From NCBI RefSeq assembly GCF_003334765.1, contig NZ_QOWT01000017.1: DNA of 64,000 nt, one strand, 5' to 3'. Below, one piece after another: positions 30,966-49,154 of this stretch (position 1 is its first letter; every line of letters starts with the position of its first letter). The notes beneath the pieces are model-generated. The model had not been told where the DNA came from, ran no database searches, and saw nothing but the letters and a program-made list of their open reading frames with translations. A program made the position numbers and the translations under genes. Origin of the DNA: Escherichia coli. Lineage in GTDB: Bacteria > Pseudomonadota > Gammaproteobacteria > Enterobacterales > Enterobacteriaceae.

Positions 30966-31856
30966 ATGGATGCAAAACAAACGCGGCAGGGCGTATTACT
31001 CGCTCTTGCCGCTTATTTTATTTGGGGTATAGCGCCAGCGTACTTCAAGTTGATTTACTACGTGCCCGCCGATGAAATCCTGACGCATCGCGTGATCTGG
31101 TCGTTTTTCTTTATGGTGGTGCTGATGAGCATTTGCCGCCAGTGGTCCTATTTAAAAACGCTGATTCAGACGCCACAGAAAATTTTTATGCTGGCAGTCT
31201 CTGCCGTGCTGATTGGTGGCAACTGGCTACTGTTTATCTGGGCGGTGAACAATCACCATATGCTGGAAGCGAGCCTTGGTTACTTTATTAACCCGCTGGT
31301 GAACATTGTGCTGGGGATGATTTTCCTCGGCGAGCGATTCCGCCGGATGCAATGGCTGGCGGTGATTCTGGCGATATGTGGCGTGTTAGTCCAGCTGTGG
31401 ACTTTTGGTTCGCTACCTATTATCGCGCTGGGACTGGCATTTAGTTTTGCCTTCTACGGTCTGGTACGCAAGAAGATTGCCGTTGAAGCGCAAACCGGCA
31501 TGTTAATCGAAACCATGTGGCTGCTGCCCGTGGCGGCAATTTACCTGTTTGCTATTGCCGACAGCTCAACCAGCCATATGGGGCAAAACCCGATGTCGCT
31601 GAATTTACTGCTGATCGCCGCCGGTATTGTCACTACCGTACCGCTGTTGTGTTTTACCGCCGCTGCCACGCGCTTGCGTCTCTCAACGTTAGGCTTTTTC
31701 CAGTACATTGGCCCGACGCTGATGTTCCTGCTGGCTGTGACGTTTTATGGTGAAAAACCGGGTGCCGATAAGATGGTGACTTTCGCCTTTATTTGGGTGG
31801 CGCTGGCAATTTTTGTGATGGATGCGATTTATACGCAGCGTAGAACGTCCAAATAA
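30966..31856 (+). CDS. rarD: EamA/DMT-family transporter RarD
   Basis: 296-aa 10-TM ORF. Confidence 0.9.
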   Translation: MDAKQTRQGVLLALAAYFIWGIAPAYFKLIYYVPADEILTHRVIWSFFFMVVLMSICRQWSYLKTLIQTPQKIFMLAVSAVLIGGNWLLFIWAVNNHHMLEASLGYFINPLVNIVLGMIFLGERFRRMQWLAVILAICGVLVQLWTFGSLPIIALGLAFSFAFYGLVRKKIAVEAQTGMLIETMWLLPVAAIYLFAIADSSTSHMGQNPMSLNLLLIAAGIVTTVPLLCFTAAATRLRLSTLGFFQYIGPTLMFLLAVTFYGEKPGADKMVTFAFIWVALAIFVMDAIYTQRRTSK

Positions 31857-31950
31857 AAAATAAATATATTCTGAAAAAATATGCCGACTCTTGCATGAGA
31901 GTGGGCATATTGCCATGCTGACCGGAGACTCATACAAGGATGTAAAATTT

Positions 31951-32331
31951 ATGTTACGTATATTTATCCCAACATCTAACGGTAAGATTTCCAGACGTCG
32001 TTATATATTTTCATTTATTTTAATAAATTTCATTTTTGCCTTTCTTATTATCTTTTTTAACGATGGAGAAGCAGGCTTTCTTGTTATAGTCTCTACCATC
32101 GTACTCCATTATCTCGTCATCAACATGAATTGCCAGCGACTCCGTGATAGTGGTTTCATCTATATAAAAACTTATGTTTTTGGTACATTAGCAGTATATA
32201 TCATCTCTATCATCACAATGATAGCCGAAGATTTTGCCTGTTCAGGCAATGGTTCGATGATTTTTTTGATTTGTTATTTTTCCACTTTCAGTATGCTAAT
32301 GCTTGCACCTACTGATTCATCAAAACAATAG
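31951..32331 (+). CDS. yigF: Small inner membrane protein YigF (DUF805-like)
   Basis: 126 aa from [18 protein letters not shown]; markedly AT-rich coding sequence; track ORF extended 20 codons. Confidence 0.8.
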
Positions 32332-32344
32332 TTATGGAGTATTT

Positions 32345-32725
32345 ATGAGTAAGGAATATATGAACGATGGTTCATTAAGTGAAAAATGGAAATACCGATT
32401 TAATTTTTATGATCAACATGGTTTTCCTGGATTCTGGGGGGCAACACCAGAATATAAAGCAGCATTTAAAGCATTAAAAGTAAGACAACGCTTAACTATT
32501 CAAATGAATTTCATTGCTTTCTTCTGTTCCTGGATATATTTATTTGTCCTGGGGTTATGGAAAAAAGCAATTATAGTTCTATTACTTGGTATTCTATCTC
32601 TATTTGTTGGTGCACTAATTGGCGTTAACATTCTGGGAATTGCCGTAGCAGCCTATGTTGCTGTTAACACGAACAAATGGTTCTATGAGAAAGAGGTAAA
32701 AGGGTTAAATACCTGGAGCCTTTGA
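32345..32725 (+). CDS. yigG: Small inner membrane protein YigG (function unknown)
   Basis: 126 aa from MSKEYMNDGSL with GGAG RBS; AT-rich; 13 bp after yigF stop. Confidence 0.8.
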   Translation: MSKEYMNDGSLSEKWKYRFNFYDQHGFPGFWGATPEYKAAFKALKVRQRLTIQMNFIAFFCSWIYLFVLGLWKKAIIVLLLGILSLFVGALIGVNILGIAVAAYVAVNTNKWFYEKEVKGLNTWSL

Positions 32726-32733
32726 ATAACAGG

Positions 32734-32770
32734 TGGCTTAGCCAGACTAAGCCACCGCTCTCGTTTTTTA
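32734..32770 (+). terminator. Rho-independent terminator of yigF-yigG
   Basis: GGTGGCTTAG-CCAGA-CTAAGCCACC hairpin followed by CGTTTTTT; T-run overlaps the corA stop codon. Confidence 0.7.
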
Positions 32771-33718
32771 CAACCAGTTCTTCCGCTTAAAGTACAGATA
32801 CGGTGCCAGGCCCGCGAGGATCATAAAGATAATCGCGCCAGGGTAGCCGAAGCTCCACTTCAGTTCTGGCATAAACTCAAAGTTCATGCCATAGCTGGAA
32901 GCAACGAGCGTCGGCGGCAGGAATACCACGGATACCACCGAGAAGATTTTGATGATGCGGTTCTGCTCGATGTTGATAAAACCCATTGCCGCCTGCATCA
33001 GGAAGTTCACCTTCTGGAACAGGGATTCGTTATGCGGCAGCAGGGATTCGATATCTCGCAGGATTTCACGCGCCTGCTCCAGTTGCCCACCCGGTAAACG
33101 CGCTTTACGCACCAGGAAGTTGAGCGCGCGCTGGGTATCCATCAGACACAGGCGAACTTTCCAGCCGATATCTTCCAGTTCCGCCAGAGTGGAGAGCGCC
33201 TCGTCGTACTCATCGCCCTGATGCCCTTCCATAATCACCCGGCTCAACTGCTCCAGGTCGCTATAGATATTTTCAATTTCATCTGCCAACTGTTCGATTT
33301 TGGTTTCGAACAGATCCAGCAGCAACTCGTAGGCGTTACCGTCTACCATCGACTGGCTACGGGCACGCATACGATACAGACGAAAAGCGGGCAGTTCACG
33401 CTCACGCAGAGTAAACAGACGACCATCACGGATGGTAAATGCCACAGTGGAGTTACCGGCGTGATCTTCCGCATCTTCAAAGAAGAAGAAGGAGTGAATA
33501 TGCAGGCCGTCGTCGTCTTCAAAGAAACGTGCCGATGCTTCGATGTCTTCCAGTTCCGGGCGGGTTGCCAGGCTCTGGCCAAGTTCAGATTGTACGCGCA
33601 GTCGCTCGTCGTCGTCCGGTTCGACAAGATCAATCCATACTGCATTTACAAGGGGTTGTGACTCTTCGACTTCCAGCCGGGTCAGTCGGTTATTTTCCAG
33701 TTGAAATGCGCTCAGCAT
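32768..33718 (-). CDS. corA: Magnesium/cobalt transport protein CorA
   Basis: 316 aa from [16 protein letters not shown]; C-terminal TM pair with YGMNF motif. Confidence 0.95.
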
Positions 33719-34087
33719 GACCGGGACTCCCAATGCTTAAAATATCGGACAGTTCGGTGGGCACACAGAAACAAATTGGGTTTCAGACCATTAAACAGCC
33801 TGACTCAGCGCGACGGGAAAAATTGAGGTCGCTGACAACCGCTAAGGCTATCAGCAAAAAGGGATAGCCTTAGGAGTTGATCCTGGATGACAGGATAGTG
33901 AGCCAGTATCTACTGGGTGTGTCCAAGGCGAATGTCCTCTTAGAGTGATCGTGCGCGCATGTTACGCCAGCAAAATTTTGCCGTCAACACGCAACAGAAC
34001 ACCACAGAACAATAGTTGAACTTCGCGCTTTTTGGTACTCGTCAAGGTCGCTAACAGGATAAAAAAATCCCACATCCAGGACCTATA

Positions 34088-48476: not shown

Positions 48477-48523
48477 TTCCTTCTCACCCGGAGGCAAGCA
48501 CCTCCGGGGCCTTCCTGATACAT

Positions 48524-48730
48524 AAAAAAACGCCTGCTCTTATTACGGAGCAGGCGTTAAAACAGGTCTGTATGACAACAAGTGGGTGCTTCACTCAACG
48601 TTGTGTCCATGGTGTCTGATGAGGCATAAGCGACATCTGTCAGTGGACGATAAGCACCGTAAACGGCTCTGCGTCATTCCGGAGTTTATGAGGCACTAAG
48701 GCGAACATAAGAGATGGAATGAGCATCTAC
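48524..48730 (-). ncRNA. glmZ: GlmZ small regulatory RNA (activator of glmS translation)
   Basis: Minus-strand sequence from 48730 reads GTAGATGCTCATTCCATCTCTTATGTTCGCC... and ends in hairpin AACGCCTGCTC-CGTAATAAG-AGCAGGCGTT plus TTTTTTT; matches GlmZ (207 nt) as I recall it; no ORF. Confidence 0.85.
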
Positions 48731-49154
48731 TCGTTTATTATGCCACAGAGAATCGGGAAATAACATCCCTTAACACTTGTTATGAGATAATTCTGTAATC
48801 CTCTTTGCTTCCTGAGTAATAACTTCCTGAGTGAATATTTAACCTGAGCTTGATCCTACACATACTTATTATGAATGATAAAATTCATTCAATTAATAAC
48901 ACATATATTAATTGCCGTTAAAACTAAAAACAGCATCAATAATCAACGCGATATAATAAACCTGCCTTACATATCAACTGCGCCAGAGGTAGGATTGAAA
49001 ACGCTCTCCTGATTTTCCAATTCATTTTCTGGATAAATAAATAATTTATTTTTGTCACTATTATTTATGTAATCATCCTGTCAGGGAGAGGGATCTCAAT
49101 TATCAATGCTTAATTACGTCATCATTTTGATGACATGAAACCGGAGCATTTTGC

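Follow-up and report, generated by a model that had tools for sequence, protein, structure and literature searches.

The AT-rich yigG-yigF pair of Escherichia coli as a probable exchangeable cassette between rarD and corA

The current study deals with the gene pair yigG-yigF, which lies between the convergent core genes rarD and corA in a 64,000-nucleotide stretch of Escherichia coli DNA (contig NZ_QOWT01000017.1 of assembly GCF_003334765.1; in the following, the window). With a probability of roughly 0.8, positions 31846 to 32767 represent a foreign-type, AT-rich accessory cassette that occupies the usually short terminator spacer between these two core genes, recombines through its flanks, is silenced by H-NS, and encodes a dispensable pair of envelope proteins. 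Xenogeneic silencing at this locus is already known, and the locus itself is a published illustration of it; what is added here is incremental, i.e., the multiallelic nature of the swap site, a third YigG lineage that lacks an annotation in O157-type strains, duplications of the corA 3' end, and the sharing of alleles with Escherichia albertii. On this view, the seemingly fixed "y-gene" operon of K-12 is just one among a number of exchangeable cassettes at a site accessible to recombination.

RESULTS

Composition and limits of the cassette. The GC content of positions 31857 to 32767 is 0.347, compared with 0.528 for the whole window, and this is the lowest-GC 911-bp stretch of the entire 64 kb (z = -5.8). 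In a 300-bp profile, values of 0.32 to 0.35 within the islet stand against 0.50 to 0.56 in the flanks, and the drop falls exactly between the stop codons of the convergent genes rarD and corA. Codon usage deviates in the same way: the GC content at third codon positions (GC3) is 0.31 for yigG and 0.29 for yigF versus 0.593 +/- 0.041 for the 50 other open reading frames (ORFs) of the window, and an index resembling the codon adaptation index, which was trained on these 50 ORFs themselves, is 0.51 and 0.50 versus 0.675 +/- 0.043. The noncoding parts of the islet are as AT-rich as its genes. Both the strong AT-richness, which the initial annotation had estimated by eye at about one-third versus one-half GC, and the atypical codon usage that it had proposed are hence borne out by the numbers. 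Homology to the alternative configurations found in other E. coli strains stops at position 31845 and restarts at 32768, which places the limits of the variable cassette at about 31846 and 32767. A second low-GC stretch of the window, the approximately 680-bp hemY-aslA intergenic region at 48477 to 49154 (500-bp GC minimum of 0.344), has no annotated gene in the K-12-like RefSeq record, so that, among coding parts, the yigG-yigF islet keeps its place as the most accessory-like one of the window, a rank that the initial annotation had given it among all parts.

Two genes for proteins of 126 aa each, separated by 13 bp and equipped with their own ribosome-binding sites, had been predicted in the islet, and exactly this is found: AAGGA lies 10 nt upstream of the ATG of the first gene and GGAG 5 nt upstream of that of the second, and the ORF list contains no third gene in the interval. 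Only the names were reversed, because RefSeq designates the rarD-proximal gene as yigG and the corA-proximal gene as yigF. A 138-aa version of yigG with an upstream start at 31915 was rejected, as the orthologues of other genera start at the 126-aa position.

Polymorphism of the rarD-corA site in E. coli. Of the 5426 complete E. coli genomes, yigG-yigF was present in 2963 (coverage of at least 80% of the query 31700 to 32900), the pair DUF3289-DUF943 in 2627, a third cassette segment in 1431, and a nearly empty site in at most 28. DUF3289 and DUF943 have been reported as a colicin-M-like toxin (effector) and its immunity protein (Geller et al. 2024, PMC11148199). Six arrangements were distinguished. 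Configuration A, that of the window, reads rarD-yigG-yigF-corA, and A' has the same order with divergent alleles; about 565 records fall into the band of 80 to 90% identity to the query, and the three listed there (83.5 to 83.6%) all carry the second allele A'. Configuration B is rarD-(yigG remnant without start codon)-DUF3289-DUF943-corA. Configuration C, which includes O157:H7, is rarD-hyp99 (minus strand)-128-aa ORF-137-bp corA 3' fragment-DUF3289-DUF943-corA. Configuration D combines both modules as rarD-yigG-yigF-corA fragment-DUF3289-DUF943-corA and also occurs in Atlantibacter and Enterobacter sp. E76, where the corA fragment measures 267 bp; configuration E retains a spacer of 128 bp. 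Subtraction, with the classes taken as exclusive and the toxin module assumed in all C genomes, gives approximately 2770 genomes for A plus A', 1000 for B, 1430 for C, and 190 for D.

The 128-aa ORF of configuration C is intact between a gene for a "hypothetical protein" and the corA 3' fragment in E. coli strain A2 (L007:1569-1955, plus strand) and O157:H7 strain Z1832 (L004:2216-2602, plus strand), and it lacks an annotation in both RefSeq records. Its product is 98% identical to protein P0177, a hit of the YigG profile (E = 6.5e-11; see below) that shares 27% identity with K-12 YigG and matches Pfam DUF805 with E = 0.41. The neighboring hyp99 was considered as a relative of DUF2628 or DUF805 and rejected. 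In E. coli RM14723 (configuration E, L089:1634-1761), the final 15 codons of the YigG-like gene of O157-type strains persist. Since configuration E keeps codons of this ORF and configuration B a remnant of yigG, both represent secondary deletions and not ancestral empty sites, and a YigG-family gene was present in the precursor of each E. coli configuration examined. At this one site, E. coli has three YigG lineages of deep divergence, two of them with 76% and 27% amino acid identity to K-12 YigG. Another nearly empty rarD-corA spacer was seen in E. coli SCPM-O-B-8794 (L009).

Allele exchange and selection. A and A' diverge only inside the cassette, where identity per 100 bp is 67 to 86% within 31901 to 32700, compared with 90 to 100% in the flanks. 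The nucleotide identity of yigG and yigF between the two alleles is 74 to 80%, that of rarD in the same strains 96%, and the synonymous divergence (dS) amounts to 0.70 for yigG and 1.25 for yigF versus 0.17 for rarD and 0.11 for corA. The A' yigF of strain EcPF7 (L001:2147-2527) is 99.5% identical to yigF of E. albertii (L008:7994-8374), with the adjacent corA being about 93 to 95% identical to that of E. albertii and the sequence from the corA 3' end onwards 98 to 100%; judged from these sequences, the near identity of yigF points to a recent sharing of the cassette between E. coli and E. albertii. K-12 YigF is 85% identical to its counterpart in Salmonella, 83% to that in Superficieibacter, and 70% to that encoded by the other E. 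coli allele, whereas the order is reversed for K-12 YigG (76% to A' and 46% to Superficieibacter), and the two genes therefore have different histories. The ratio of nonsynonymous to synonymous divergence (dN/dS) between the alleles is 0.15 to 0.20 and exceeds that of the flanks, which shows that both genes have been under purifying selection and kept as coding sequences, with a constraint weaker than that acting on their surroundings. These patterns fit a scenario in which the cassette has been replaced repeatedly, probably by homologous recombination with the conserved flanking genes as anchors.

Distribution across Enterobacterales. A CorA-anchored survey of 80 species-representative loci yielded 77 with both rarD and corA flanks. 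The interval between the two genes measures 47 to 135 bp in 43 of these species and contains only a species-specific terminator hairpin; it comprises 174 to 449 bp in three species and approximately 1.1 to 2 kb in 19, where it is GC-normal and harbors unrelated genes in those inspected, and in a single species it contains a remnant of a DUF943 gene. A YigG-like plus YigF-like pair in K-12 order and orientation was present in 11 species, which together with a partial locus of E. albertii belong to Escherichia, Superficieibacter, Pseudescherichia, Phytobacter, Kosakonia, Mangrovibacter, and Atlantibacter. The pair is thus not syntenic across the order, as its 11 to 12 occurrences stand against 43 empty spacers, and its presence in about eight genera is patchy. 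Where it occurs, the interval has a GC content of 0.34 to 0.45, always 10 to 19 points below that of its own locus. Identities to K-12 in other genera are 18 to 46% for YigG and 34 to 83% for YigF, compared with 91 to 95% for CorA.

Distant pairs of YigG-like and DUF2628 genes from metagenomes also adjoin the corA 3' end. In the loci L097:2811-3610 and L098:2563-3362, a distant YigG-like gene overlaps the DUF2628 gene by 4 bp beside a corA 3' end, and an MR_MLE-family enzyme and a LacI regulator are found upstream in place of rarD, so that the adjacency to corA looks more constant than that to rarD.

Published evidence for silencing and phenotypes. The yigF-yigG region is the example shown in Figure 1 of a study on "promoter islands" (Panyukov and Ozoline 2013, PMC3661553). 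Table 1 of that study lists yigF/yigG as island 4000528_663, which is bound by H-NS in all three sets of compared ChIP-chip studies (chromatin immunoprecipitation on microarrays; entry "A" in column H) and predicted to be foreign by Nakamura et al. as well as by Lawrence and Ochman. One of the six intragenic promoters described by Singh, Warman, and Grainger (PMC7229825) lies in the locus; it is repressed by H-NS, and its activity needs an AT-tract and residue R451 of sigma-70. Moreover, an extended protein occupancy domain of small size that covers yigF, yigG, and rarD was presented as an example of a silenced small operon of unknown function based on in vivo protein occupancy display at high resolution (IPOD-HR; PMC8282354, Fig. 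7C). Silencing by H-NS, which the initial annotation had regarded as probable, consequently finds its support in H-NS binding and the occupancy domain for the locus and in repression for the intragenic promoter. Its second proposal, an old horizontal acquisition, holds with respect to the foreign origin, for which composition, the patchy and incongruent distribution, and the two surveys of foreign genes speak; the attribute "old" is too simple for a multiallelic site that is still exchanging. The interpretation in terms of horizontal acquisition and H-NS is supported as correct and has already been published.

Phenotypes are known from Salmonella, where a yigG deletion weakened the attachment to plastic, spinach, and tomato and, in serovar Typhimurium, abolished growth at the higher chlorine dose; yigG was reported to be absent in serovar Enteritidis (PMC3579871). 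The arms of the published knockout primers match the 3' end of rarD and the start of the DUF2628 gene (yigF), which identifies the rarD-proximal gene as the one that was deleted. Salmonella yigF adjoins corA, and the order in Salmonella is accordingly also rarD-yigG-yigF-corA. The identity of 82% between Salmonella and K-12 YigG stated in that study is discordant with the 56 to 58% obtained for the Salmonella entries of the AlphaFold Database (AFDB).

The YigG and YigF proteins. YigG scores 255.6 bits against the NCBIfam equivalog PRK11371, above the curated cutoff of 217, while its match to Pfam DUF805 (PF05656) is not significant (independent E value of 0.023, 15.6 bits). A profile of 15 YigG orthologues gave 53 hits with E <= 0.001 among 1.84 billion representative proteins, and 14 of 22 remote hits picked from this search are members of Pfam DUF805 at E <= 0.001. 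The YigG alignment (A1) and an alignment of eight remote hits (A4) matched in hhalign with a probability of 98.6% over 106 columns (E = 1.4e-15), a comparison that is not fully independent because A4 was drawn from hits of the YigG profile. The AlphaFold2 model of YigG has a mean confidence score (predicted local distance difference test, pLDDT) of 89 and contains helices at residues 15 to 38, 42 to 66, 72 to 92, and 100 to 118. After the orthologues, most of its fold matches in the AFDB are DUF805 proteins, but they are weak (E values of 0.01 to 0.5, template modeling scores of 0.42 to 0.74), and small helical bundles match easily; a relative with a solved structure was not found for YigG. 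We conclude from these profile and motif comparisons that YigG represents a small, divergent offshoot of the DUF805 superfamily. The DUF805-like motifs noticed in the initial annotation do exist (GKISRRRY and CQRLRDSG) and reflect remote homology, but they reside in YigG and not in YigF. A conserved RxRDSG motif is located between helices 2 and 3 of YigG, and according to the positive-inside rule this loop and both termini should be cytoplasmic.

YigF matches Pfam DUF2628 (PF10947) with residues 17 to 117 (E = 5.2e-10). Its N-terminal region is probably soluble, and hydrophobic helices come after it. Its AlphaFold2 model (pLDDT of 89) has 137 AFDB fold matches at E <= 0.001; among the top 50 listed, 46 are named DUF2628, and the other four comprise one fragment, two entries named "membrane protein," and one "Uncharacterized protein DUF2628." No fold match to YigF was obtained in the PDB, and weak hits to SemiSWEET (E = 0.007 to 0.02) were rejected as hydrophobic-helix noise. 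A common origin of YigG and YigF was likewise rejected, since BLASTP returned no alignment and hhalign a probability of 0.6%.

Other features of the region. A single hairpin at the end of the cassette, with perfect 10-nt arms and a subsequent T-run, directly abuts the corA stop codon (32768 to 32770), in agreement with the one terminator predicted for both genes; as it was detected on the minus strand as well, it probably also serves corA (Table 1). The stem-loop between rarD and yigG is shared by configurations A, B, and D, also where a deletion has removed yigG, and may be a 3'-end or stability element of rarD; the fold of 31857 to 31950 has an energy of -23.7 kcal/mol (z = -3.6). No Rfam family above threshold was found in the islet, only sub-threshold chance matches. 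Upstream of corA, a 57-bp RefSeq ORF, ysgD ("YsgD/CorL family"), maps from L005:3671-3727 to window positions 33870 to 33926 (approximate; minus strand) and presumably encodes a leader peptide.

Table 1. Features of the rarD-corA region (window positions, unless a locus prefix is given)
Feature	Position	Strand	Remark
Variable AT-rich cassette	31846..32767	.	Starts within the final codons of rarD and ends at the base adjoining the corA stop codon
yigG	31951..32331	+	126-aa predicted membrane protein, four helices, divergent DUF805 relative; RefSeq name
yigF	32345..32725	+	126-aa DUF2628 protein; RefSeq name
Intragenic promoter region (PMC7229825)	32102..32251	+	Both published primers match the window exactly, once each
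Terminator hairpin, common to yigG-yigF and probably convergent corA	32732..32756	.	Detected on both strands; inverted repeat I16
Stem-loop between rarD and yigG	31878..31911	+	14-nt arms, 93% complementary, no T-run; inverted repeat I6
rarD	30966..31856	+	Left flank, proposed recombination anchor; ORF, annotation
corA	32768..33718	-	Right flank, proposed recombination anchor; ORF, annotation
corA 3' fragments	L007:1980-2116, L088:3410-3546, L025:9820-10086, L094:3429-3695		

DISCUSSION

Probable mode of exchange and role of the pair. Overall, the composition of the yigG-yigF islet, the alternative occupants of the site, and the confinement of allelic divergence to the cassette are best read as signs of an accessory element. 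Such a cassette would enter, leave, and be replaced by homologous recombination in the conserved flanks without being mobile itself, a mode of exchange that is probable because neither mobility genes nor flanking repeats are present. Its AT-richness would recruit H-NS and keep the genes off under laboratory conditions, and YigG and YigF may cooperate in the inner membrane, in an envelope function that is dispensable and specific to certain niches. The same gene order across genera, despite the low identity of the YigG proteins, suggests that the two products work together, and an envelope-related function, in line with the phenotypes of the Salmonella yigG mutants, seems to be the best reading.

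Several observations weigh against parts of this interpretation. In O157-type strains, the YigG-like gene is partnered not by yigF but by the unrelated small gene hyp99, the DUF2628 homologues of Pseudomonas stand alone, and a physical interaction of YigG and YigF is suggested solely by their co-inheritance. The genes are often broken, namely by IS1 in yigF, by an internal stop codon in yigG, or by reduction to a 5' remnant; together with configurations B and E, this frequent breakage and loss means that yigG-yigF is clearly dispensable. A simple sigma-70 consensus scan detected two promoter-like sites versus 4.3 +/- 2.4 in composition-matched shuffles, which keep the AT-rich composition, by an algorithm that differs from that of PMC3661553. 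Finally, the occurrence at the same site in about eight genera could also reflect vertical descent from an old insertion followed by many losses; the unameliorated GC3 would have no explanation if the insertion were that old. The insertion sequence IS1 has repeatedly entered different cassettes of the site, hitting yigF, the DUF3289-DUF943 module, and the hyp99 segment (L006:1146-2302, strain MB50; also H26 and H46).

The neighboring toxin module and a possible immunity function. The strongest competitor of the envelope interpretation considers YigG-family cassettes to be immunity-like or self/non-self membrane modules directed against an envelope-acting toxin or phage and kept multiallelic by balancing or diversifying selection. 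Many immunity proteins are small membrane proteins, and YigG and YigF have the same character; the three deeply diverged YigG lineages at one site and a dN/dS above that of the flanks would also be expected. In some E. coli strains, Atlantibacter, and Enterobacter sp. E76, moreover, the colicin-M-like DUF3289-DUF943 pair lies directly beside yigG-yigF. However, each module is also found without the other, the K-12 pair is not accompanied by a toxin gene, and dN/dS is well below 1. No match in PHROGs or PADLOC was obtained for YigG, YigF, DUF3289, DUF943, or hyp99, on which grounds a defense or phage origin was rejected, and a literature search found no published function for DUF805 or DUF2628. 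An immunity function of this kind is therefore regarded as unlikely. In each E. coli configuration examined, the multiallelic rarD-corA spacer contains one of at least three anciently diverged YigG-family cassettes or a remnant of one. The wider claim that these YigG-family proteins constitute a new class of envelope immunity or self/non-self determinants whose polymorphism is maintained by balancing selection, and not inert silenced cargo, is improbable as well.

Duplications of the corA 3' end. The toxin module is bracketed by a duplication of the corA 3' end; the repeated segment is 137 bp long in E. coli, and in Atlantibacter subterranea and Enterobacter sp. E76 it extends to 267 bp. A duplicated 3' end is typical of elements that integrate into the 3' ends of genes, and yigG-yigF might accordingly be the remnant of an integrative mobile element targeting corA. 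This origin is very doubtful, as corA is not duplicated in the K-12 arrangement, att-like or target-site direct repeats do not flank the cassette in the window, and no integrase, transposase, or phage-family gene was detected in any configuration examined. The variant positions (CATGCCATAG) of the K-12 corA 3' end are shared by the corA fragments of configurations C and D, whereas the full-length corA genes of B to E lack them. We offer the duplicated ends as a simple deletion route from configuration D to A, with which the shared variants are consistent, although the change may have run in either direction.

The weakest alternative, i.e., that the genes are native and ancient and owe their AT-richness to the Ile, Phe, Asn, Lys, and Tyr content of small membrane proteins, can appeal to two very hydrophobic, Ile- and Phe-rich products and to synteny in several genera, but it is already largely refuted by a GC3 of about half that of the other ORFs (0.29 to 0.31 versus 0.59), which is largely independent of amino acid content, by equally AT-rich noncoding parts, by the absence of the pair from most Enterobacterales sampled, and by an allele sharing that is incongruent with species relationships.

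Comparison with known systems. With two ORFs only, no PHROGs match, and no flanking repeats, the cassette does not qualify as a self-mobile element, and with no PADLOC match and no third gene in the interval, it does not correspond to a known anti-phage or toxin-immunity system. YigG has two motifs in common with DUF805 proteins such as YhaH and YhaI of E. coli, G-[KR]-x-S/x-R-x-x-Y at the N terminus and [KQ]-R-x-R/H-D-x-G after helix 2. The SGWW and N-x-Y-G-x-x-P motifs found in canonical members are absent from YigG, and its family is tiny, with each looked-up occurrence with sufficient flanking sequence adjoining corA. YigF has the invariant KW..RF.F motif of the N-terminal region and the LGLWKK motif in common with the DUF2628 homologues of Pseudomonas, which differ by the solitary position of their gene, whereas the pairing with a YigG-like gene was seen solely beside corA in Enterobacteriaceae-type contexts.

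Among the H-NS-silenced islets and "promoter islands" of K-12, which are AT-rich, bound by H-NS, and predicted to be foreign, yigG-yigF is itself a published case and hence not different in kind. The population-level polymorphism of the cassette is not described in these studies, and the excess of promoter-like sites reported for the islands in PMC3661553 was not reproduced by the consensus scan used here. The DUF3289-DUF943 pair is found in the same rarD-corA spacer and is just as AT-rich (GC content of 0.32 to 0.33); it differs in being unrelated in sequence to yigG-yigF, absent from the window, and bracketed by the corA 3' duplication. The adjacency to this validated colicin-M-like module provides a testable lead, in the direction of envelope immunity and competition, for the DUF805-like and DUF2628 families.

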